From assembly GCF_963506605.1 (NCBI RefSeq), contig NC_083289.1:54064001-54128000 (forward strand): a DNA stretch of 64,000 nt. Reading direction: 5' to 3'. This DNA is from Zootoca vivipara. Lineage: Eukaryota. Positions 4,005 to 26,897 of this stretch are shown here, piece after piece; position 1 is the stretch's first letter; each line of letters opens with the position of its first letter. Below the pieces are notes generated by a model. It had not been told where the DNA came from and made no database searches. It saw only the letters and a program-made list of their open reading frames with translations. A program made the translations under genes and the position numbers.

Positions 4005-4650
4005 ATGGTGTTGACCGACGACGACAAGAACCACGTGAAGGCCGTTTGGGCCGAGATCCAGTCCCATGCCGGGGACATCGGCGCCGAGGCCATCACCAGG
4101 TAAGCCCGCCCCGTCGGGCACAGACCCTCTCCCGGGGACGAGGCCGCGGGCCGGGCGGGAGTCGGACCGTCGTCTCCCTGCTCCTCTCCTCCTCCTTCTC
4201 CCGCAGGATGTTCGCAGCGCACCCCACCACCAAGACCTACTTCGCGCACATCGACGTGCACCCCGGCTCCGCTGACATCAAGGCGCACGGCAAGAAGGTC
4301 GCGGCGGCCATCGGTGAGGCCGTGGCGCACATCGACAACATCGCCGGCGCCCTCGACAAGCTCAGCGACCTGCATGCCCAGAAGCTGCGCGTGGACCCCG
4401 TCAACTTCGCGGTGAGTCTCTCTCGCTCCCCGTCGGGGCTCCAGGGCAGGCGGGCGGGCTGGATTCCTGCTTCGCTCCGTCCGGGGCCCCGACTAACGCT
4501 CTCCCTCCGCTTTTCCCGCAGCTGCTGGGCCACTGCATCCTGGTGGCCATCGCCTCCAACCACCCGGGGCTCCTCAAGGCCAGCACCCTCGTCTCCATGG
4601 ACAAGTTCCTGGGCCGCGTCGGTATCGTGCTGACCTCCAAGTACCGCTAG
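4005..4650 (+). CDS. HBA: Hemoglobin subunit alpha-A (142 aa, 3 exons)
   Basis: Exons 4005-4099, 4207-4411 and 4522-4650 (95/205/129 nt, canonical alpha sizes); GT-AG introns of 107 and 110 nt. Protein [49 protein letters not shown]...KAHGKKV...[25 protein letters not shown]...LTSKYR with distal and proximal His intact. [12 protein letters not shown] is alphaA-type. Confidence 0.97.
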
Positions 4651-7394: not shown

Positions 7395-7549
7395 CTAGGG
7401 AGAAAGGGGGCGACTGTAGGCGGCTTCTACTTCTGCAAAGACGGCGTCAAAGAACTTTACCCAAGAGAGCCTCATGTCATCGGTGAACTCATCTTCCAGG
7501 AGTTCTTGGAAGACACAGAGAATGGTCTGAAACAGAAGCTGGGCAAAAA

Positions 7550-7585
<36 letters not shown>

Positions 7586-10500
7586 TAGGGGGCAGCTTGG
7601 GATGCATTCCCAGTGACCTCCAAGGCTCTAACCACTAGGCTCCCTTTCCAGAAGCCCTTGCTTGAGCGCCTCATGGATTCCCTGCCTGGCTTAGCCTGCA
7701 GGAGACAGCCCCAGGAAAGGCATTAAGCCTGATGGGGGGGGGGAGGGCAGCGGAGGAAGCCTGTGGCTGCTCTTGTGGCAAAGAGCAGTGCTGAGGAGGC
7801 CCAGCTGGGCTCCCTATCTGGTCCCTGAGGCCATTTCCCCCCAAGCCGTGCCCACCTGTCCCACACCTGATGCCACCTGTGCCAGCAGGTGTGGCCCGGG
7901 CACTTGCACACTTCCTGGGGCCTCCTTGCAGGGAAAGCTGGGGTGGGCTGCGCCAGGGAGTTCTTCGTCTGGAAGGTCCTGTCTGCAGCCCCCTGGTGCC
8001 TTCAGTGAGACCTGCTTGGCTTGGCTTCAGAGCACCCCTGCGCCAGACAGGCTTTGCAGTGAGCCCCACTGATGTGGCCCCCTGACCTCAAGACAATGCC
8101 AGGAGAGTGGCAGGGGGTGGCCTGCTGGGGATGCCAGGATCAGACTCAGGTCCCCCCCCCCCATGGGATGTATAATCAACGATGCAGTCAAATGCAACAT
8201 TTCCTGTTGCCTAGAATGGTGGACACACAGGGGAATGTGGCTCTAGACCGGGAGGGCTTCCTGTCATACCTGCTCTGGAGCATCCTCCCCCTGTGTGTGG
8301 CCAGGTAGGTGGGCGGGACCTTAGCAGACCCTACAAAAGGGCTGGCCATGCAGGCACCTTCCTCTTCTGCTCTCTTGGGCTCTCTGCTGGCTCTTAGCCA
8401 GCAGCACATGGCAGGACGGAAGCCACAAGGTGGAAAGTCTGAGGCCTAGCTCAGACTTCTTTTCTCTACAAATGTAACTGTAACTGCAACATGAAGCCTG
8501 CCTTCAAAATTCTTTACCCTTACTTTTAAACAAGACTGTCGTGTTGTTGTTGTTGTTGTTGTTATTATTATTATTATTATTATTATTAGTGGGAAATAAA
8601 AGGGGAAACTTACCAGCAACAATCCAGACTGGATTGCGTAACTTAAATGATTCTAACGAATCCATCAACTTGGCAATGCACAAGGGAATGTGCTCTGCTG
8701 CTTGCTCACTAGCGTGAGTGAGGAGGGATGATGTTTAATCAATATATCCTCTCCTACTTTCCTCAACATGCCCACACCCCCTGTGCCCCCTCCGGTTTGA
8801 AGGATCCCAGTTGCCCCGAGGGCACGCTGCCAGCCCAGCAGCTCCTGTGTCCTCCCCGCTTGCTCGCCCCCCCCCACTACCTGGAACATCTGTGAGGGCA
8901 CTTGGTGGACGTTCTTGTGGTTTTCCACCAGGCGCGCCACCAGCCGGCAGCCCTGCTTCCGGTTGTCCACGTTTTCAACCAGCTGGTTCAGAGCCACCAT
9001 GACCCTCCGGCCATGGGAGCCCACCTCAGGGTCCCCCAGCAGGTCGCCTTCCGTTGGGATGTTCTTGAAGAACTGCTTGCTGTCAGGGTGGTCTGTGAAG
9101 AACCTGCGTGCGGAAGAGCGAAGGTTCGCCTTGAGCGCAGAGCTCAGATTTCGTACAGACCCTTTTGAGTATCGCTGCCAAAGGCTGTGGGGGAAGCAGC
9201 ATTTGACCCCCTTCTTAACTCTCCCCCCCCCCTCTGGGCCTGGCTGAGGAGGACAGCCTGGCCTCACGGTCTGCAGAGTCTGCTTTGCTCAGGAGTCTCA
9301 GCTGGGTTCTTTCTAGAAGTGTCTGCTGGCTGCCGGCTGCTCCCTCCCTGACCGCCCCGCTTGATCCCCTGTGGATTTGGTTTGCATAGATGGTGCACTC
9401 CCTCAACTCTGTTGGGTGGGTGGCAGTAATGCCCAGTGGCCTGTTTCTTTCACTAATCAATAGGCCCCTCGACCACAGAAATCTCTGCTTCCAAACCTGG
9501 ACAAAACAGCATTCACAGAAGTCTGATCTTACTTGTCCTGCTCTGCCCCCCCCCCTTCCACTTAATTCCAGAAAGGAATTTGTAGATGGCTTTCACCCAC
9601 ACACCCACTTGGGACCTCCGGAAAGCAGAGGATGCCAGGGGAGCTGCAGCATATCTTCTGCAGCAGACATTCTGCCAGCCTCCTCTGGCTCCCACAACAA
9701 TGGCCTCCTGCTTCCCTCCAAGAGCTGCTCACCTGGAAGTCGCCCTTCCCCAGCCAGCCAGCACACTGCAGGGTTCTGAAGAGGAGCCCAGCATCCCAGA
9801 GGCCCCTCTGCTCTCCCTGAAGCTGCTAGTGGGGGCTCCTCCCTGAACAGAGGTGGAGAAATGGCCACCCCCTGCTTTCTGTCTCTTTTTGTCTCTGAGG
9901 GGTTCACCGATGATGTGCACCCAAAGGGCCCTCAGGAGGAGGAGGAGAGGATGGTGCCCTCCATCTCCTAACTCTTTCTAAAAGTCATTCTGATATGGCT
10001 CCAGGAGGTGCTCAGGAGGTGGTCTCTTAAATGGTGAGGGAGTGAAGCCAGGGGCATTGGATGGGGGCGGTCCGCCCTGGGTTCCACTCCAGGGGGGTGC
10101 CACTTGGCGCCCTCACCCCCTCGATTCCCAAGCCGAGCCTCCAGGCTCCCGGTAAAAAGTCCGCTCAGCGGTGCGCCAAGCGGACTTTTTACCGGGAGGC
10201 TGGGCTTGGGAGTCGCGGGGGTGGGGGCACCAAGTGGCACCCCCCCCCGCTGTGCCAAGTGGGCCTTCTACCTGGATCTGGAGGCACGCGGCTTTGGAGT
10301 CGCCGGGGGCGGGGCGGCGATACCCCGCTACGTAACACGCATGCGCAGCGCGATGCTGCGCATGCGTCGTTATGTGGCGGGATATCACCGCCCCCGCGCC
10401 TCCAAAGCCGCTCACCTCCAGCTACAAACTCCAGGTAGAAAACCCGCTCGGGATGCTGTACATGCATGTTACGTAGCAGGGTATCGCCGCCCCCCCGGCG

Positions 10501-11905
10501 CCTCCATAGCCGCGCGCCTCCAGCTACAAACTCCAGGTAGAAAGCCCACTCCTGAGCTACAAACTCCTGAATAGGCTTTTTACCTGGAGTTTGTAGCTGG
10601 AGGCGCGGGGCTTTGGAGGCGCCGGGGGGGCAGCGATACCCCGCCACGTAGCGACGCATGCGTTGTTATGTAGCGACCCCCCCCCCCGGTGCATGGCAAT
10701 TTGCCGCCCTGGGTGCCGCAGCGGCTCGCTACGCCGCTGAGCGAGCTGAGTGAAGCAAAGGGCTGCAGTGGGTTGAGGCCCGTTGCCTTCTGCATGGACT
10801 GCAAATGAGGTATGAAAAAGGCCAGGCTGTTACACAAAACTAATTCAATCCTATGTTGGAGGTGCAAACAGGGGGAGGGGACAATGGGGTGGGGCTGTGA
10901 AAAAAGTAAGAACTTTTGGGATATTGTATATGAGGAACTTAAAAAAATGTTTAAACAAACATTTGCGGAAAAAACCGGAAGCCTTTCTTCCAGACATTCT
11001 GACAACTGATATTCCAGATGACAAGAGGAGGGTTTTCTTACATGCAACAACAGCAGCAAGAATGTTGATTGCCAAAAACTAGAAGGGAGATAAAATTACA
11101 ACGAAGAAAGAACGGCAAATCAAATTATGTGAACACTTAGAACTAGCAAATATGACAGAGGCAATCAGGAACCAAACAATCCAAAAATTCAAAACTGAAT
11201 GGGAGTGTTACAGAGTATATTTAGAAGAACAGCATTCCCAAACCAAAATTCTTAACATGCCGTGATTAACTTTCGCAAATTAGATAACAGGCAGATAATG
11301 TACGTCATGTAAGAGCAATGAGCTAAACTGCGAAAAGGTGAAAAAGGACACAGTTAAAAAGAAAGAATGAAGGGTCCGTGGAGAGAAGTCATTTTTGAAG
11401 TATGAACGTAGAAGTGTTACTTGATGTTGAGCTATTATGATTTTCCTTTATGTATGTTATTGTGTTTTGAGTAATGAATAGAAATAACAGCAGTTCTAAC
11501 AAGCAAAGTTAATAAAGAATGTATCTATATACAGTGGTACCTTGGTTTGCAACCGTTTTGAATTACAACCACGTCAAACCCTGAAGTGTGTGTCCCTTAC
11601 AACCCCCTTTTTTTTATTGCAACCCTTTGGGGGGGGGCATTGGCGAAAGCGTGCCTTGGGTTATAACCTGTTTTGGTTTACAACTGGACCTCCAGAACGG
11701 ATTACGGTTATAAACCAAGGTATCACTTTAAAAGAGAAAGGCCAGGCGGGGAGAAACCGCCTCCGGCCACCAGGCGGCAGCACCTGACCTGATGAGAATG
11801 AGCCTGCCATTGGCTTCCGCCTCGTCAAAAGCCTTGAGCCAGCAAGTCTGGATGTGCAGCAGCTGTAGATCAGTCAGAGGCACCAGGGGCTCCAGGATGG
11901 GCAGC
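7395..11905 (-). CDS. GBY: Globin Y core exons; no ATG in this span
   Basis: Minus-strand exons 11905-11789 ([39 protein letters not shown], phase 2), 9103-8881 (223 nt; [74 protein letters not shown]) and 7538-7395 ([47 protein letters not shown]). Introns at canonical globin positions; CD1 Phe, E7 His and F8 His present. FKNIP.EG...[11 protein letters not shown] is GbY-like, and the position 3' of alpha-globin matches known GbY synteny. Confidence 0.9.
7551..7584. repeat. (TTA)n microsatellite abutting the GbY last-exon acceptor
   Basis: About 11 TTA units, ending 10 nt from the AG at 7540-7539. Confidence 0.95.
8541..8588. repeat. Compound (GTT)n(ATT)n microsatellite
   Basis: Read directly from the sequence. 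Confidence 0.95.
10049..10748. mobile_element. CpG-rich non-autonomous hAT-like DNA transposon with internal tandem and inverted repeats
   Basis: CAG...CTG termini and 8-bp TSD AGTGAAGC (10041-10048, 10749-10756). Internal hairpin at ~10127-10210. Repeated CCTCCAGCTACAAACTCCAGGTAGAA units in both orientations. Confidence 0.75.
10790..11520 (+). mobile_element. L1/Tx1-type LINE 3' fragment
   Basis: ORF2 C-terminal Cys motif [10 protein letters not shown]...[10 protein letters not shown] and [13 protein letters not shown], frameshifted. AT-rich 3'UTR ending in AATAAA. Confidence 0.75.
11532..11728. mobile_element. Tc1/mariner (Tigger-like) MITE
   Basis: TA|CAGTGGTACCTTGGTTT...AAACCAAGGTATCACTT|TA inverted termini. 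Confidence 0.75.
11765..11783 (+). promoter_or_regulatory. Candidate CTCF site
   Basis: GGCCACCAGGCGGCAGCAC resembles the CTCF core CCASYAGRKGGCRS with one mismatch. Motif match only. Confidence 0.5.
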
Positions 11906-12299
11906 CTGGGGAGGGGAGAAGAAGGAGGCAGGTGAGCTGGGCCTCAGGACCTTGGAGAGCTCAGGCTTGGAGGCCAGCAAGCAGCATCCCCTGGGGCCCA
12001 GAGGGAGAGAGAGCCCCTGGTTCCATCTGCAGTTCCAGGTGGGGCTCAGGCCCCGTTAGGTAGGGGCCCCCGAATCGGGCTTGGTGGTGCTGATGGAGGA
12101 CCTTTGCGGCAAGGAGGGCAGTGGGATTGTGCGCCTAAGATTCTCCCGCTTTGTCCATTTGACTTTCATCCGGAGTTTGTGCAGAGCAGTAGAAATATTA
12201 TCGATACGCCAAACCCACGTCAAGGGACAGTCATTGAGAGCCCCAACTCCTTTTGAATTATTGTTGGGATTGGCTAGGAAGGCAGAACAGGGTGGGGAG

Positions 12300-13730
12300 T
12301 CCAGACTCTAAAGTATGCTAATCCTAGTGGATATGGCTACAGCAGGTGGCTTCAGGTAGATGTGGGAAGCTGATTGGCAGATGACTATCAGCAAGGAGGT
12401 GTGGACCTCAATGTGCAGGAGGGAATTTCCTTTTAAATCAGTCTTGGCCCTTACTCGCTCCTCCTACTCGCCTGGAGGAGACTGAGAGGAGATATTAGTG
12501 CCACCTTCAAGTATCTGAAGGCCTGTCGCACGGAAGAGGAAGCAAACTTGTTTTCTCCTGGTCTGGAGGGTAGGACTTGAACCCATGGCTTCAAGTTACA
12601 TACAAGAAAGGAGATTCTGACTCAACATCAGGAAGGCCTGACAGTAAGAGGGTAGCAGGGCCCAGAGCTGTTCAGCAGGGGAACTGTCTCCCTCAGGAGG
12701 TTGCAGAGTCCCCTTCCTTGGAGGTTTTAAAGCAGAGGTTGAATGGCCACCTGTCATGGATGCTTGAGCTGAGATTCCTGCATTGCAGGGGGTTGGGCTA
12801 GGTGACCCTTGGGGGTACCTTTCAATTCTGATTCTATGGCCAAACTGCTGGAGTATCTCAGGTTCTAACCAAACCATGTGGTGGACGTGTGGGAAAGTGG
12901 CTCAGTTCTGGGCGGAAGTATTTGTCCAAATAGAAGCAACTACTGGACAAATGCCTCTAAATGCCTGGAGCTGGCTCTCTGCAATCTTTTTACAGGAGGG
13001 AGTATTAACTTACAGCTTCACCCTTTAGTAAACCTTTTTCGAGCTGCCAGGCTCATAAGAACAAGATACGGGAAGAACTTCAAGGAGGTTTCTCTGACAA
13101 ATTGGTCCAATTAAGTATGCCAAACTGAACTTGTGGAATTATAAAGCAATAAAATAAAATTGCTACAAGGCTCGAGGCACAAAGATTCTCTTGCTGCTGA
13201 TTGGCTCAGCTTTATTATGCGCATGGTTAAATATAAACTTCCTTCACATTGCAAAACATTTTGGTTTCCTTAAACAGTTTTTTGCCTGCTGTACAAACAG
13301 AAGTTTTTTTTGGATAAGAACTTACTATGCTCTTTGGTTCTTATTCTGCATCATGTGCTTTCTAAACCCCAGCTTCAGGGTTGGGCTGAGATATTTAATG
13401 ATTTATCTATATGACGTCTTTATATGTTGAAATAATTAAATACAAATTAGTTTAAAAGTGGGGACTTTTAAAAAGAACTTGCACACGCTGCACAGTTGCT
13501 CTGTGGACTTTGCTCCCACAAGATGTATTAATGGCCAGCAGCTTGGACAGCTTTAAGAGGGATGGGAAAATTAATGGAAGATTGCCACTGCAGCTAGTGG
13601 CCATTGATTATGTTCTACTTCCACAACTGGAGGTCATTTGTCTCAGTTTTGCACTCAGGTCCTGCTGCCGGACTTCCCTTTTGAGGCATCTGGTCGGCCG
13701 CTGTGAGAACAGGAGGCTGGACTAGGAAGG
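12300..13730 (+). mobile_element. Degenerate L1 3' fragment with a nested CR1 3' fragment (~12470-12838) and a further old CR1 fragment (~13480-13730)
   Basis: CR1 peptide LPQEVAESPSLEVLKQRLNGHL with an ATTCTGATTCTATG tail. L1-like CWSISGSNQTMWWTCGKVAQFW. LPQDVLMASSLDSFKR in the second CR1 piece. Confidence 0.6.
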
Positions 13731-13887
13731 CCTTTTCTTTGCGCTTCCAGATTATTGGCACTTAGGAGGGCATTGTGAAAACTTAAAACTGTGTTACGAG
13801 CTGTATTGTAACACATCTATGGCACGGCCACACGTGGAACGCTTTACTTATCACAGTTCTCTTTATTCTACTTTCCGGGATGTAATT

Positions 13888-14137
13888 CAGGGGCCAGCAA
13901 ACTTTTTCAGCAGGGGGGCGTTCCACCGTCCCTCAGACCTTGTGGGGGGCGGACGGACTATATTTTGAAAAAAATAAATAAAATATGAACGAATTCCTAT
14001 GCCCCACCAATAACCCAGAGATGCATTGGAAATAAAAGCACACATTCTACTCACGTAAAAACACACTGATTCCTGGACCGTATTTAGAAGGCCATTGGGC
14101 TGGCTCTGGCTCCCGGGCCTGAGTTTAACTACCCATG
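13888..14137. mobile_element. hAT-type MITE (same family as 51209-51675 and 44118-44335)
   Basis: Start CAGGGGCCAGCAAACTTTTTCAGCAGGGGG is shared with the copy at 51209. Degenerate end and TSD. Confidence 0.7.
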
Positions 14138-14343
14138 ATGTAGTGCATACAGTTCTGGTTATTACCTAAAAAATATTTTAAGAGCTGGGAAAAGCGCAGG
14201 AGAGGGCAATGGAGACGATCAGTGGTTGGAGGAGCAAGTTCCCCAAAAGGAAAGGGAACAATTTGATTGCCGTCAGGCTGAGACAGCCCAACAGGAACCA
14301 CAGCCCTACAGTTGCAGAGCAGAGGCCAGGGGTGGGGAGTAGG

Positions 14344-14906
14344 TGTGGCGAAAAAGTTGGTTTTGCTGGACAGGTTGGTTCAACAAGAGTTTCTTTTTTC
14401 TTTCTTTCCCTGCCAGCAAATGGTTCAGAAAAGGCAGCTTCTGATTGGCTGTGGTTCCGGGAGGGAGAGTTTAAAAGCAGAGGATTTGAAGAGAGACAGG
14501 GAGGTGCAGTTGGAATTGAGGGTGGAGAGGTTGGGAGACAGGTTGAGGTAAAAAGAGGGAAAGGTTGCGAACAAACAAAAAAGAATTTCCACCAGATATT
14601 TTGGGACTCCAATTCCCATCATCTCTGACCACTGGTCCTGTTAGCTAGGGATGGTGGGAGTTGTAGTCCCAAAACATCTGGAGGGCAAAGTTTGGCTATG
14701 CCTATTATAAAAAAAAAGGAACCAACTTATAACGCAACCAAAAACAACTGAGGATGAGTTAAATAGCATTGTATTCCTGAAGTAACCTAAGTTTTTTTAC
14801 TTGTGTTATATACTATCTTGCCTTAAACAAATCTTTATTGTTTATTTAAAGAAAACCCACCTGAGACTCCAACTGGCTAGTTATCCCCTCACAACGGTCC
14901 CCCACA
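14344..14906 (+). mobile_element. Possible solo LTR, with a partial hAT MITE at ~14595-14703
   Basis: TG...CA-like ends and the LTR-like promoter string CTGATTGGCTG...TTTAAAAGCAGAGG. No clean TSD found. Confidence 0.3.
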
Positions 14907-15018
14907 GGATAATATGGGTTAGAATTTGAAGAGAAAAAACCTTCAGATAAAGGGTTGCTCAGTGAGGTGGGGGCAGATCCGAGAGAGACGGGGGCCAAGG
15001 GCTTGAGAGGAAAAAGTA

Positions 15019-15432
15019 CAGTGGTGCCTCGCTTAACGAACGCCCTGCTTAACGAAATTTCCGCTTAACGAAAGGATTTTTCGAGCGGAGGTTGCTTCGC
15101 TAGACGAATGCGTTTTCGTCTAGCAAATCGCGGTTTCCCATAGGAATGCATTGAAATTCAATTAATGCGTTCCTATGGGCAAAAGTGTTCTCGAAGCTAC
15201 GAACATGAGTTTGACCAAACTGCGGGAGGCAGTGGAAGACAGGAGTGCCTGGCGTCCTCTGGTCCATGGGGTCACGAAGAGTCGGACACGGCTAAACGAC
15301 TCAACAACAACATGGGCAAAAAACAATTCGGAAAAAATGCAAATGCATTCCTATGGGACTCGCTGGACGAATTTTTTCGTTATAAGAAAAGACCCGTGGA
15401 ACGAATTAAATTCGTCTGGCGAGGCTCCACTG
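15019..15432. mobile_element. Tc1/mariner MITE with a nested BovB 3' fragment
   Basis: TA|CAGTGGTGCCTCGC...GCGAGGCTCCACTG|TA. BovB 3' end at 15185-15311 (EATNMSLTKLREAVEDRSAWR, (CAA)n tail) with a 10-bp TSD ATGGGCAAAA (15175-15184, 15312-15321). Confidence 0.88.
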
Positions 15433-15904
15433 TAGCTTGCGGCATCTGTGCTTTAGCTGGCAACTGCCTTGAACGTCGCTCATCATGGCTTGGAGTTACT
15501 CATAAAGTCTACCTCTAGGGTCCTCTTGTATGATGCGTGTCATCCAGGTGGATTTTAATGAATTCAATAGCGCAAAAGGTTACTACGAGTCATGGGGTGT
15601 GTGGCGGATGCCGTGGATTTAAAAAATAGTACATTCATAGAGTTTAGCTTATTTTTTAGTTGCTAACTTGTTAATATTGCTTCATAGATTATAAATGTCT
15701 ATTTGGTGATCGTATGACGTATGCTGCAATTATGCTGTTTAGCTTATTTTTTAGATGCTGGTTTGATAATGGTGCTTTCATGGATTGCAATCACGCTACA
15801 GACCATTTTCTATTGCAGGATTTATGCTGTACTTGTTATTGTTATGTATGTATTGTTTGGGTAGAAAATGGCACCCAGTCGGCAACTTTAGAGTCTGTTG
15901 CGTT

Positions 15905-16876
15905 TATAGAATCATAGAATCATAGAATCATAGAGTTGGAAGAGACCACAAGGGCCATCCAGTCCAACCCCCTGCCAAGCAGGAAACACCATCAAAGCAT
16001 TCCTGACAGATGGCTGTCAAGCCTCTGCTTAAAGACCTCCAAAGAAGGAGACTCCACCACACTCCTTGGCAGCAAATTCCACTGCCGAACAGCTCTTACT
16101 GTCAGGAAGTTCTTCCTAATGTTTAGGTGGAATTTTCCCTCTTGTAGTTTGAATCCGTTGCTCCGTGTCCGCTTCTCTGGAGCAGCAGAAAACAACCTTT
16201 CTCCCTCCTCTATATGACATCCTTTTATATATTTGAACATGGCTATCATATCACCCCTTAACCTTCTCTTCTCCAGGCTAAACATACCCAGCTCCCTAAG
16301 CCGTTCCTCATAAGGCATCGTTTCCAGGCCTTTGACCATTTTGGTTGCCCTCTTCTGGACACGTTCCAGCTTATCAGTATCCTTCTTGAACTGTGGTGCC
16401 CAGAACTGGACACAGTACTCCAGGTGAGGTCTGACCAGAGCAGAATACAGTGGTACTATTACTTCCCTTGATCTAGATCAGGCATGTCAAACCTGCGGCC
16501 CTCCAGATGTTTTGGACTACAATTCCCATCTTCCCCAACCACTGGTCCTGCTAGCTAGGGATCATGGGAGTTGTAGGCCAAAACATCTGGAGGGCTGCAG
16601 GTTTGACATGCCTGATCTAGATGCTATACTCCTATTGATGCAGCCCAGAATTGCATTGGCTTTTTTAGCTGCTGCATCACACTGCTGACTCATGTCAAGT
16701 CTGTGGTCTACCAAGACTCCTAGATCCTTTTCACATGTACTGCTCTCAAGCCAGGTGTCTCCCATCCTGTATTTGTGCCTTTCATTTTTTTTGCCCAAAT
16801 GTAGTACTTTACATTTCTCCTTGTTAAAATTCATCTTGTTTGCTTTGGCCCAGTTGTCTAATCTGTTAAGGTCATT
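15905..16876 (-). mobile_element. Young 5'-truncated CR1 LINE, near-identical to 1335-2990
   Basis: (ATTCTATG)n tail and ORF2 C-terminus [30 protein letters not shown]. Interrupted by a MITE at 16479-16614. Confidence 0.95.
16479..16614. mobile_element. 136-bp hAT MITE
   Basis: TIRs CAGGCATGTCAAACCTGC...GCAGGTTTGACATGCCTG. TSD ATCTAGAT (16471-16478, 16615-16622). Confidence 0.92.
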
Positions 16877-17028
16877 CTGAATTTGCTGCCAGAGTAGCTG
16901 CAAGTTCTTATTTATTACAGAAGAGAGGGAACCTGAACCTGTTTAGAAGAAAGGCAAGCGGCATGGACAGCTTCCCTCTCTTCTGTAATAAATAAGAACT
17001 TGCAGCTACTCTGGCAGCAAATTCAGAA
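16875..17028. repeat. Perfect 57-bp inverted repeat with a 40-bp spacer
   Basis: 16875-16931 is the reverse complement of 16972-17028. Confidence 0.92.
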
Positions 17029-17229
17029 GAGAGGCAAGTTCTTCTTTAGGGAAGTTCTTCCCTGTTTAGGGAAGTTTTTAATGACTGATGTTTTAATATA
17101 TTTTAAATCTTTTGTTGGAGGACTCCCAGAGTGGCTGGGGAAACTACATCGTCATCATCATACTTATTAATTATTATTATTATTATTATTACTTCCTTAG
17201 ACAATGTGCCATTGGTGAGATCTTATCTG

Positions 17230-18950
17230 CACGGGCTCCCTTGGCTTAAAAGGCGATGAGTCCAATCCACGGAGAAGCGCTCTCCGCAGCTCCAGGCAGG
17301 CCGTCTCAATGGAGCCTCCCTGCTCGGGCGCAGTCCCCCTGTCCGGCTCCCTCCCTTCCCGGGCCTGGCTCGGCCCCCGCCCCTACCCCACTCACTCAGG
17401 GGGCGCCCTGCACCAGGAGCGCCCGGGGGAAGCCATGCCTCTGCCACCACCGAACTTTCGACCGACAACGGCCGCGGGGGGCGGTTGGGGGGCGCTTCGC
17501 GAGGCGCGCCGGGGAGACGCTGCCGCTTGCCATATGAGGGGTTTTTTTTTTTGCAAAGCTCCTGTCGAGGGGGGCTCCACCCCCAAAGGGCCATGTGGCC
17601 CAGGGGGCTCCGCGCAAGATGCGCCCGTGCGCCGGCGGGCGGCTTCCCGGCGAGGCTCCCCGTCCCCGTCCCCGTGCGCGGTGCAGCGGTGCCACTGCCA
17701 GGCCCGTCGCTCGTGCCCGTCTCCGGGAGGGTTAGGGGCGGGGCACAGCCCGCAGCGCAGCGGCCGAGGCGCGCGCCCGCAACCGCCTCCCTCCCTCTGT
17801 CCGTCCCTCCCTGGCCCCCCCCCTCGGGTGTCCCCGTGACGTCAGCGCCGGCCCGGGGCCTCGGCGGGCGATGGCGACGCAGGAGGGCGAGAAGGCAGGC
17901 GCTCCGGGCTGAGGCGCGCCTGCTGCTGCCGGCTTCCCCTGGCCCCGGGGGCCGCCGCCGCCACGGCTCCGATGGCGTCCGGCCCGCTCGTGCTGGCGCT
18001 GCTGGTGCTCCTGGCCCCCGCCGCCCCCTCGCCCGCCAAGGAGACGCGGAGCAGCAACGGCGGCGGCCCCGACGGTAAGTAACGGCCGGAGGCAGCGCCA
18101 CTGCCCGGCGGAGCCGCACTGCGGAGCAGCGGGACGGAGTGGCACTCTGCACACGCCTAGAGGACCGCGGCTCCTGCGCCTTCGTGACAGGGTCGCGCCT
18201 GGCAGGGACAGCGGCGCCTCCTGCCCCGCAGCTGCTTGGGGGGATTGGGTGTGTGTGTGTGGACCGTTTCCCTCTTCCTGACCCGACACCTTTGGATGCT
18301 CGCTCGGGTTTGAGCCCGTGGCGGCGGCGGCAGCGGAGGAGGGGCGCAAGGAGGCGAGACGGAGGTCCAGTTCAGCCACGGCGCAGGTGGCCTTGGGTTA
18401 CCTCGGGGAGAGGCCCGCGGGCCGCCCCGTCTTCAGTCTTCCAGCCCCCTTTAGCCCCCTCGCCCGCAGAGAGAAGGCGCTTGTGGGGACCCCAGCAGTC
18501 ATTTGGCTAAAAGGGCCCCCTCCCGGCCAGTCCCTGTTGGAGGTGACCCCTTCCTCGGGTTGCCTGGGGGGGAGGGGCGCCGTGTTTTCGTCTCTTATTT
18601 GGGGGAACGGATGGTTCGTCCGGTTCTCGCTTGGCGCGGGGGGGGGGCGGGGCGGTGCCGCGATGGAAAAGTGCCGCTGCCAGGCTGGGGCGGCGCCCGG
18701 GTCACGGAGTCCTTGCTTTGCCCGGGGAGGCCGGTGGCGCAACGCCCGGTTCCCAGTTACCCGCAGGGCAACCTTTGCCTTTGCAGCGAGTTGCGCGGGC
18801 GGCGGGGCGGGACGTTGGTTGAGCATCACTTGGGCGCGTGGAAAGCGGCGGAGGGGGTCTCTCTCCTCGCCGGAAGAGCGGCGGATGGCTGGACCGGTCA
18901 GGCAGGCTCCCTCCCTCCCGCCCGACGGGTCAGCCGGCTTGTCCGCATTC
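17230..18950. promoter_or_regulatory. CpG island / PGAP6 promoter, probably bidirectional
   Basis: Very high CpG and GC content. GC box GGGGCGGGGC at 17735-17744 and perfect palindromic CRE TGACGTCA at 17837-17844. No TATA box. Confidence 0.85.
17396..17436 (-). CDS. Candidate first coding exon of globin Y (MASPGRSWCRAPP-E)
   Basis: Minus strand GAGGC ATG G (G at -3 and +4), then 13 codons plus GA, then donor GA|GTGAGT at 17396/17395. Phase 2 matches the acceptor at 11905 (GA|G = Glu). No transcript evidence available. Confidence 0.55.
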
Positions 18951-21900
18951 TCTCGCGTGTGCGCCTTGACTCAGCGCCCACTGCTTCCTCTGCCTTGGGG
19001 AGAACCAGCACCCCTCCCCCAGCGGATTCCTTTCCTTTTAGGGTCGGTCACCCGAACCTCCACTTCTTGCCCATCTTAGACTTGATCTTGTTGCGTGAGG
19101 GGCTGAGCATGGGGTGCAGGGGGTTGGCATGGCACACCCTGCCCCGTCCCCTATCCCTGCCTATCGCACCTTTGTTTGTCAGTCACTGCGCTGTGCACTC
19201 CGCAAACAGGCAGGTGCCTGGCGCCCTGGTCCCCGCAGGCCAATCCCCTGGGCTTGCCGGCTCAGCCCTTTCAGGAAATGCCAGTCCTTGTGGCAGGCTG
19301 TGTGCTTGGCAGAGCTGCCTCCTCCCCATGACCTCCTTTCCTGAACTCCCCTTGACCTTGCTGCAGGGCAAGCTTGGGCAAGGCAAGACCTTCCTGGCCC
19401 TCAGGGGGAAGGGGCAAGCACCAGGCCAGCTTCTATTGCCTGGAGGCCAGAGAGGATCCCGTGGCTTTGGACAAGCCCCCTGCCAGCTCCTTGTGGGAAG
19501 CCAGAGGCATGGGGGGGCACTGCCCGCCCCTTCATGCTGCTGCACTTGGCAGAGACTGGCGGGGGGGGGGGGGCTGGCTGCTGATCCGCCTGTGGTGGGA
19601 AGCACTACCTGCCCAAGGCTGGCTGAGCCAGAATTCTTTCCCCTGCCCATTTCCTGACCGCCTGCCCCCCTCCTCCCCCCGCAGACCGGTCCTTAGTGGC
19701 GGAGTATTTCGTCCAGGGTGCCCAGAAACTCTCCTTCTACAGCTGGTATGCCAATGCCAGGCTCTTCCGCTTCCGCGTGCCAGAGGATACCGTCCAGCTG
19801 CGCTGGCTCCTTCAGGCGGCCCAGGGAAGGGGTCCCGACTGCGGCAGCACAAACGTCACCATGTACGTAGCTACCTCCCCCTTCTCCCCGGGGAGCTCAG
19901 CCTGCCGGCTTCCTCCTGGAAAGAGGGTGGCCGCCTCCCCTCCTTCTGCCCCACTGACCTGTGTGTCTCCTGCTGACTTCCAGCCACTTCCGCCATGGTG
20001 CCCCTCCTGTTATCAACCCCCTGGGCACGCAGTTCCCAGCCAACACAAGCGTCCGCCTCGCCTACAATCTGACCACGACTCTGGCCACTCTGGTGCAGAA
20101 CACCACCTTTGTCAATGTCACAGGGCCTGCCGCAGGCGACTGGTTCATGGTGGCCCACCTGCCCAAGGCTGCAGAGAGGATTGAGGTGAAGGTGAGAGCA
20201 GGGGGCCTGCTTGGTTGGAGTCTGGGGGGTGGGGGTGGGAGGATCCTGCAGCTGCTGCATTGGGACTTTGCTGGCAGTTTCTGGACGATCTTCTGCTGTG
20301 CCCGGGGCTGCAGGCGGAGGCCCCTGAATGTCCTCTTGTGCCGAGTGTGGCCTCCTCCTGCCAGCCACGGTGGTCCAGGAGGCTGGCCGTGATGCGTCCC
20401 TCCCTCCCTGCAGGGCATCTCAACGCCATGCACCTACAGTTTCCAGCCGGACATGTTTGTGCTGCGCGTCATCGACACGCTGATTCTTGAGCCCGACACT
20501 CCTGTGCAGCAGTCCATTGCCCAGCCCGCCAGGCCCCTTCATGCCAAGTGAGTGCCCCCCATCTCCCTGGGCACCAAATCCTGGTGCTGGTGGGCCTGCC
20601 ATGTGCTGGCCAGCTAGAGTCAGCCGCTCCTCCCTCTCTATCCTTCTTCCCCCTGCAGGGTCTTTGTCCCCGGCTACAGTGCCGTGCTGCACTTTGAGCT
20701 GAGCGGCTGCAAGGTGAACACTTCCAGCCCCTGCGCCCTCCGTGTCACGCTGGGCTCTGCCACGCTGCCTTTGCGCTCCCAGAAGGTGCTCAACTGCTCC
20801 GGGGACTGCAGCGGCGTCCTCGCTTCGCCACCGTGGGAGAAGTGGCTGCCCATCACGGTGGAAAGCCTCAGCGGCCCTGGGACCAAGGTCTCCTTTCAGC
20901 TGAAGGCCTCCTTCACAGGTGTGTGCCAGCTGCAAGAGGGGAGGGGCAAAGGTGGGGTGCCAAGCTGTGTCAGCTCGCCAGTGCCTGAGTCTCTGCTGCG
21001 GATGCCCCAGCTGTGGGTCAGGAGGTGGGTTGCCCTGCCCTGCTGCCTTCTTGTCCTGAGGCCCTCGCTGACCCTGTGCCGTATCCTTTGCAGTATGCCA
21101 GCCTGACAGGGCCAGCTCCTTCCTCAGCTTCTACCAGAGCCTGAACCGGAGCCAGGAGGCACCTTTGCCAGGAGGAAGCCCCAACGCCACCCTTGGCCAA
21201 AGCAGCCCCTGCCTGCGCAACCAGCCTGTCATCCGCGAAGACCTGGACGTGGTGTCTCTGCATTTCCGTGTCCTTGGGGACGTTGGTGTGCCTGTCCAGG
21301 CCGAGCCCCCGGCTTTGCTTCTCTTCAACCTGAACTCGGGCATGGACAGCGGGGGGACGCTGGTGCTGAATCTGGCCCTTAACCAGGTAAGAGGGTTGAC
21401 CTGGCACTGCCCCTCTTGGGGCACTGAAGCCTGACTGCTAGGGGAGAGGTGCCAGCTGAGTTTCTTTCCTGCTTTGTCCTTGCAGACTGACTGGAGCCTT
21501 GGGAATGCCTCGGTGTGGGCCTGCTTGAGTGCCAGCTCCCCTGTGCTCTCTGCGAACGCCACGAGGGGCTGCCACACAGGTACATGGCACAGCAGGTCCT
21601 TGCTCGCAGCAACGACCGGTGCTGGGGGTGGGAATGCCCGGGACAAAGTGCTTCTCTGCTTGTTGCACCCGAGCCCTGGGAGGGCACTGAAACTGGCAGG
21701 CTGGGCGCTGGTTGCTGACGGAGTTTGGGCACTAACAGCAGGCCTGCCTCTCTTCTCTGCCCCACAGCTTTCTCCCAAGGCTACCCGCTGAACGTGTCCA
21801 CCTCTTCTCCAGATGCTACACTCATCATCCCGTACCCAGAAACGGACAACTGGTTCCTGTCCCTGCAGCTCCTCTGTCCGGAGGCTGTGGGGTGAGTCCT

Positions 21901-25983: not shown

Positions 25984-26897
25984 AAGTGCAGGGAGTGCGC
26001 CTGACAACCCTTGGAGCAGAAGCAGGAGGCACCCTTCCCCCCCCCCGCCCCACAGCAGACTGGGCAGCCTCCACTTTGGGACTCTTACCTCGACCTTGGA
26101 AGAGCTGCCTTCTGCTGTGTGGGGTGATGGCTGGCCAGCCACACAAAGTTTGCTCAGAGATGAGGGGGCTTCTTGCTTCAATTCTCTGTGTGCCACTTAC
26201 TTCATCAAAGGTCCAGAGGGTGGCAACATGATCATGGGGCCTTTTCTGCAGTGACTGCCTGCTGTAGGATGCTCTCCTTGGAGAGCCTCGCACGGCGCCT
26301 TTATTACATATCTTTAGGCGCCAGAAACTTAACTAAACAATTTAGAAGAGTTTGGATTTGATATCCCGCTTTATCTGTGAGGTGAGTGGGGCTGAGAGAC
26401 TTCAGAGCAGTGTGACTAGCCCAAGGTCACCCAGCAGCTGCTTGTGGAGGAGCGGGGAAGCGAATCTACTGCTCCTAACCACTACACCACACTGGCTCTC
26501 AAGGTTTAGTAGAGGGGGGGGTTGTCTTTTCCCCTCCCCTTTTCCCATTATTATATTATGCATTTTGTGTTTTATGCTGTAACCTACCCTGTGGTCTTTT
26601 GATGAAGGGCAGTGTATGGTTGGTTGGTTGGATCCATCTGTCTCAGGGGACTGTGCCCTTGGGGGCGAAGGCAAACTCTTGGAAGGTTGCAGTGCTTGCT
26701 GTGGCTGTAGAGACCTGTGAGGTGACGAGACCGATACAGGAGAGACATGTTTTATTGCAGCAGGGGCAGGTGAAGACATCCAGTTGTGCTGCACCATGGT
26801 GTTTCTTATCTCTGTGCTCCTCCCAGTGGTTATTCCTCCTCTGGTCACTGCTATGGATGCACAATCTGACTGCCTCCAGGCACTGTGGTCGTAGTAG

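Follow-up and report, generated by a model that had tools for sequence, protein, structure and literature searches.

The locus analysed here raises the question of whether an old globin gene is driven from the promoter of the GPI-phospholipase gene with which it lies head to head. In the 64,000 nt of Zootoca vivipara DNA that were analysed (hereafter, the window), the minus-strand ATG of globin Y (GbY; A at 17436) and the plus-strand ATG of PGAP6/TMEM8A (A at 17972) are separated by 535 nt, and the two genes, encoded on opposite strands, face away from each other. A CpG island spanning approximately 17200-19200 encloses both ATGs, so that the diverging start codons in one island described by the first-pass annotation were recovered as described (features in Table 1). 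As in a CpG-island head-to-head promoter, the island contains no TATA motif (pattern TATAWAW, either strand, 17200-19200), again as claimed, and this absence is uninformative because 0.0 such motifs are expected at the G+C content of the island.

Table 1. Positions of the genes, exons and motifs at the GbY-PGAP6 locus (numbering of the window).
Feature	Position	Strand	Remarks
Alpha-A globin gene	4005..4650	+	tail to tail with GbY; TTTAAAAG box
GbY exon 3, coding part, 144 nt	7395..7538	-	polyA-type hexamer from 7334
GbY exon 2, 223 nt	8881..9103	-	Pfam Globin match
GbY classical exon 1, 117 nt	11789..11905	-	acceptor 19 nt before ancestral start position; no in-frame ATG
CTG at ancestral start position	11884..11886	-	Met in Podarcis, turtles, platypus, frogs, coelacanth
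First coding exon, RefSeq isoform X3	17193..17212	-	island edge; N-terminus maps here, donor AAGGAA/GTAATA
WGATAR site (TTATCT)	17223..17228	-	GbY intron 0, 11 nt before isoform X3 ATG; chance level
GbY E0, extra first coding exon, 41 nt	17396..17436	-	ATG to donor GA/GTGAGT, within island; spliced ORF match
Inter-ATG interval	17437..17971	none	G+C 0.76, CpG o/e 0.91
Two upstream ATGs, out of frame	17533, 17594 (17531..17594)	-	in GbY leader if the start site lies further up
GC box GGGGCGGGG	17735..17743	+	chance level, P 0.19
CRE, full palindrome, TGACGTCA	17837..17844	none	128 nt before PGAP6 ATG, ~400 nt before GbY ATG
PGAP6/TMEM8A coding exon 1	17972..18074	+	signal-peptide-like; donor GTAAGT at 18075
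First coding exon, RefSeq isoform X1	26588..26748	-	beyond PGAP6 3' end, towards MRPL28 island; residues 1-54 match 100%

On the plus strand, the later exons of PGAP6 match DUF3522, and an MRPL28-like gene follows, which we take to be MRPL28 in line with published synteny. The TMEM8A/MRPL28 order agrees with the gene order given in PMC4524481, and PGAP6 has been described as a GPI phospholipase A2 (PMC5147002). The PGAP6 ATG is preceded by an out-of-frame upstream ORF of 13 codons (17871-17912, plus strand, context GCGATGG), which could restrict PGAP6 translation if transcribed.

The gene on the minus strand is globin Y, as indicated by Pfam, fold, tree and synteny. It forms a four-exon spliced ORF (41 + 117 + 223 + 144 nt, all introns GT-AG) whose 174-aa product is identical to the lacertid RefSeq protein XP_034986447.1, which may have been built on this same DNA; the GbY start codon predicted by the first-pass annotation is thus upheld. 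The product contains a globin domain (PF00042, E 3.5e-22), and F65, H83 and H115, presumably CD1 Phe, E7 His and F8 His, are invariant in 29 aligned rows. Its predicted structure (pLDDT 90.9) matches cytoglobin and hemoglobin folds; residues 1-10 have a pLDDT of 50, with values above 90 in the globin core, and the 20-residue N-terminus gained through E0 is probably disordered in this model. In a tree of exon 2 (20 rows), GbY is nested with turtle and platypus GBY (93), and the Mb-like, Cygb-like and Hb rows from the same species fall outside this group; the corresponding identities are 50-62% to turtle and platypus GBY vs. 21-30% to the other globins of Z. vivipara. The location, 3' of the alpha-globin cluster and before TMEM8A-MRPL28, is that reported for GbY (PMC4524481, PMC5786229).

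The alpha-globin genes themselves show additional copies. Some 180 kb upstream of the window, the alpha-A globin gene has a near-identical copy (97% over 1053 nt). A diverged alpha-A-like gene (67% over 667 nt) adjoins this copy back to back on the opposite strand, and a second alpha-D-like gene is present elsewhere in the genome. The alpha cluster of Z. vivipara looks duplicated or split. Two repeat structures lie within GbY introns. The one at 10090-10650 in intron 1 is rich in CpG, carries several inverted repeats nested in one another (arms of up to 87 nt, 89%) and is probably a non-autonomous transposon. The other, at 16875-17028 in intron 0, is a 61-nt inverted repeat (98% complementary) whose copies are separated by 32 nt and which sits at the margin of a CR1-like fragment.

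The three exons of platypus GBY measure 98, 223 and 144 nt (PMC2529266, Table 1). In the lizard gene, a 98-nt exon 1 ending at the present donor would begin with the CTG at 11886, 19 nt past the acceptor. Neither an in-frame ATG nor a CpG island nor a TATA motif was found in or just before this classical exon 1. Because the exon lacks an in-frame ATG, the full protein requires an upstream exon, unless the CTG initiates, and the main candidate for this exon is E0, which lies within the island. E0 is single-copy in the genome, and the same peptide is present in gene models of Podarcis and Lacerta. RefSeq annotates three first exons for GbY, namely E0 in the island, that of isoform X3 at 17212-17193 and that of isoform X1 at 26748-26588. 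The X1 exon and the MRPL28 island are some 1 kb apart, so that GbY may tap two neighbouring islands; X1 would be an antisense transcript across all of PGAP6.

To place this exon structure among relatives, 105 proteins were gathered via protein searches (6, 48 and 47 hits) and cluster look-ups, with one row per species possessing exon 1, squamates being represented by their E0-like isoform and turtles by the short one, and models without exon 1, such as those of Python and Salvator, being left out. The rows are gene models, rather than genomes or reads, from species related to one another, and do not count as independent events. At the ancestral start position, Met is present in 6 of the 30 squamate rows vs. 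all 18 outgroup rows (12 turtles, platypus, 4 frogs and coelacanth), and all 11 longer turtle isoforms retain it as well. In 20 of the 30 squamate rows, the segment from the junction to the helix A Trp is devoid of Met; the ancestral position is occupied by Leu in all 13 snake rows and by Pro or Ala in geckos. Exactly 20 extra residues precede it in lacertids, Rhineura, Varanus, Pogona and most snakes, 12-21 in geckos, Anolis, Sceloporus and Tiliqua, and none in Lerista. The E0 peptide is conserved in length and recognisable in sequence in Varanus, snakes, Rhineura and Pogona. An extra N-terminal exon across squamates is well supported by the models. In Podarcis lilfordi and the snake Ahaetulla, some isoforms skip exon 1 and pass from E0 straight into exon 2 after residue 14. 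A test of whether the junction residue is compatible with a codon ending in G was passed by 31/31 and 11/11 rows and was set aside as near-trivial, since 13 of the 20 amino acids pass. The source labels of these proteins read cytoglobin-like, myoglobin-like, hemoglobin-like or superoxide dismutase, and a single hit was named globin Y.

The position of E0 inside the island is established in lacertids only. Podarcis models continue on the minus strand through the island (matches to 17426-17928, E 2e-14 to 1e-5), which, although such extensions may be model artefacts, shows E0 to be contiguous with the island in this genus. In the king cobra, PGAP6 exon 2 appears in antisense within one model (36.6 bits, against 28.5 for the best of 100 shuffles), compatible with a head-to-head layout in a snake. 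The window yielded no significant match for the long N-terminal extensions present in Pogona, Thamnophis, Liasis, Vipera and turtles. In the turtles Mauremys and Pelodiscus, isoforms part ways seven residues ahead of the Met, at the same point as in squamates. The acceptor is therefore probably common to both groups, and the upstream exon may predate squamates and could even predate the inversion discussed below. No crocodilian or tuatara GbY was retrieved in the protein searches.

With the gene structure in place, the promoter motifs of the island can be considered. The perfect CRE noted by the first-pass annotation is the sole full CRE within the 64-kb window and exceeds chance: 0.001 copies are expected in the interval (P 0.0008, 5000 dinucleotide shuffles; the motif was named after being seen), 24 of 100 shuffles of the whole window contain a CRE somewhere, and none of five other G+C-rich stretches contains one. 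A Podarcis muralis model reads ADVT across its position, which is compatible with a kept CRE. The other two motifs to which that annotation had drawn attention, a GC box and a GATA site at the island edge, are present and were rejected as evidence of anything. GC boxes occur at chance level (3 seen vs. 3.6 expected), and the WGATAR site, with P 0.23 in the island, falls on the downstream side of the first GbY donor and outside the inter-ATG interval. Around the X3 exon, the island edge harbors a GC box (17377), a CCAAT motif (17262) and the GATA motif (17223), all at chance level save for a 9-mer GC box (P 0.03). Between the two ATGs, no TATA-like, CCAAT or GATA motif of an erythroid globin-type promoter was found; the alpha-A globin gene in the same window has the TTTAAAAG box, and GbY is without one.

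Does the CRE confer a cAMP response, as had been proposed? A full CRE near the start is one hallmark of a cAMP-inducible promoter; the other, a TATA motif (PMC5740062), is missing throughout the island. According to the same study, TATA-less CRE promoters of mouse neurons bind CREB yet are not efficiently induced, which contradicts the proposed response. cAMP control of GbY is thus unlikely. The CRE is three times nearer to PGAP6 than to GbY, and its most likely role is basal CREB/ATF support, chiefly for PGAP6.

RNA reads from 4 of the 17 listed runs were placed on 8800-20600. Three of these are raw runs from one study, tissue unspecified, with about 6 in 100 of the reads of each run used. 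The PGAP6 joint 19862-19984 was covered by 2, 3 and 27 reads in the three raw runs, and the libraries are stranded because 31 of the 32 PGAP6 joint reads have the first mate on the minus strand. PGAP6 was detected in all three runs, whereas the depth in the GbY exon-2 bin was 0, 0 and 0.38, that is, about one read in one of them. Per exonic base, the values were 1.4, 3.0 and 29 for PGAP6 vs. 0, 0 and 0.7 for GbY, so that GbY RNA was absent or about 40-fold lower. These values weakly contradict the co-expression with PGAP6 suggested earlier; correlated expression is frequent among head-to-head pairs but is not a strict requirement for them. Among the joints listed (15 of 65), none belonged to GbY, the E0-exon 1 joint included, and the first exon of isoform X3 was not seen in the reads placed on that stretch. 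Minus-sense depth in the island bin 17468-17861 was zero; this is uninformative because PGAP6 exon 1 was nearly bare, too (0, 0 and 0.9). In another run, guessed to be RNA and picked for containing GbY, a 204-nt contig aligns to 8881-9072 and departs exactly at the exon-2 donor 8881, compatible with a spliced GbY transcript. A run search with GbY exon 2 produced no RNA run among the matches listed. High depth at 12.7-17.1 kb was repeat-derived, and five minus-sense reads ending at 11781 were not counted, being intronic, partly repeat and from about two starts.

Taken together, the geometry, the exon structure, the lost ATG and the excess of PGAP6 over GbY RNA in the three runs are observed, and the reading that we consider probable is that GbY is a weak divergent product of the PGAP6 island via E0, far below PGAP6 and not under cAMP control. 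Use of the island is likely, because the first coding exon lies in it and no ATG, island or TATA precedes classical exon 1. The suggestion that GbY is driven from the PGAP6 promoter thus survives in this respect, without its co-expression and cAMP components. A possible route starts from the sauropsid-shared inversion that placed TMEM8A instead of LUC7L beside the alpha cluster (PMC5786229) and would have brought the TMEM8A/PGAP6 island to a position about 5.5 kb upstream of GbY. Antisense transcripts arising there would reach a U1-type donor (GTGAGT at 17395) before the first polyA hexamer on the minus strand (17097), an order that favours stable transcripts (PMC6172195) and may have stabilised them. 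Once stabilised, they could be spliced to the acceptor that precedes the old ATG by 19 nt. The upstream exon would then, in squamates, have acquired an in-frame ATG, adding the 20-residue N-terminus, after which the old ATG may have decayed in many lineages, making the upstream exon obligatory. The output of GbY is probably low and one-sided, and the two out-of-frame ATGs at 17533 and 17594, if transcribed, would cut it further. To the longer history, in which the inversion supplied the promoter of GbY, the exon has been coding since the squamate ancestor and repeated ATG loss has left most squamates dependent on the island of a neighbour, we assign an even chance.

A rather unlikely alternative is that the island houses separate promoters, with GbY starting near 17480-17530 or at the island edge, following its own tissue pattern and possibly receiving help from the alpha-globin enhancers in red cells. 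The out-of-frame ATGs favour such a short leader, isoform X3 is annotated at the edge, and the unequal RNA levels would also fit, as would the chicken island upstream of TMEM8, which contacts an erythroid site (PMC2794187). However, the edge motifs, apart from the 9-mer GC box, are at chance level, the Podarcis models cross the entire island, and turtle GbY is reported to be low in all tissues tested, blood included (PMC4524481). A true co-regulated bidirectional promoter, with one core, correlated levels and a CRE that gives both genes a cAMP response, is improbable. It would account for the 535-nt spacing, the single island and the palindromic CRE above chance, and head-to-head retrocopy pairs are indeed co-expressed (r about 0.6; PMC4772013). 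Against it stand the one-sided per-base depths in all three runs, the poor inducibility of TATA-less CRE promoters (PMC5740062) and the proximity of the CRE to PGAP6. A minor or artefactual status of the upstream exon, with the CTG at 11886 initiating or with GbY barely translated and its RNA leaking in antisense from the PGAP6 and MRPL28 islands, would agree with the near-absence of GbY reads, the three annotated first exons and the Leu at the old start in snakes, but is very improbable given the conserved E0 peptide, the invariant globin core residues and the Pro or Ala of geckos at the old start.

Our preferred reading, a weak divergent GbY transcript from the PGAP6 island, can be compared with known systems. 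The lizard gene shares with platypus, Xenopus and turtle GbY the position 3' of the alpha cluster, the exon lengths of 98, 223 and 144 nt, the first counted from the old start (PMC2529266, PMC4524481), the clade and the heme-pocket residues, and differs from them by a fourth coding exon upstream (174 aa vs. 154-156 aa), a CTG in place of the ancestral ATG and a first exon in the CpG island of a neighbour. Platypus and Xenopus GbY, located beside LUC7L and without a PGAP6 neighbour, already show broad low expression (PMC2529266), which contradicts the suggestion that broad expression of the lizard gene stems from this promoter. Mammalian CpG-island head-to-head promoters with starts within 1 kb (PMC7817982) are likewise divergent, spaced by less than 1 kb and free of TATA motifs, whereas the lizard spacing is known from ATGs and the output was strongly one-sided in the runs seen.

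The description of the locus as a mirror image of the capture of chicken TMEM8A by globin enhancers is a loose one. The same inversion and the same island beside the alpha cluster are involved; in chicken, enhancer capture was shown by 3C and expression (PMC2794187), whereas promoter sharing in the lizard is inferred, and birds lack GbY. Moreover, in chicken this island region makes contact with erythroid elements, so that the effects in chicken and lizard need not be opposite; because chicken TMEM8 is erythroid, the lizard island could likewise pass erythroid input to GbY instead of shielding it. The closest parallel is the promoter piggy-backing of retrocopies, in which a head-to-head neighbour promoter is also reached via an added exon (PMC4772013). 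Unlike retrocopies, GbY is ancient and contains introns, the inversion supplied the neighbour, the added exon is coding, and co-expression was not seen. Promoter borrowing via exon gain is thus already known. The literature searched, subscription journals and supplements aside, contained no mention of an extra exon or island promoter of GbY, and no case of an old globin borrowing a promoter after an inversion and losing its own start codon was found in it.

GbY has been called the least understood vertebrate globin (PMC7475203). If the longer history outlined above is true, the four-coding-exon GbY of most lizards and snakes would be untranslatable without the CpG island of its neighbour. With a squamate-wide extra coding exon, experiments using the 154-aa form would carry the wrong N-terminus, and the 535-bp element makes the regulation of GbY testable. 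The lizard would also offer a natural and dated example in which an inversion rewired an old gene, at the very locus of enhancer capture in chicken.
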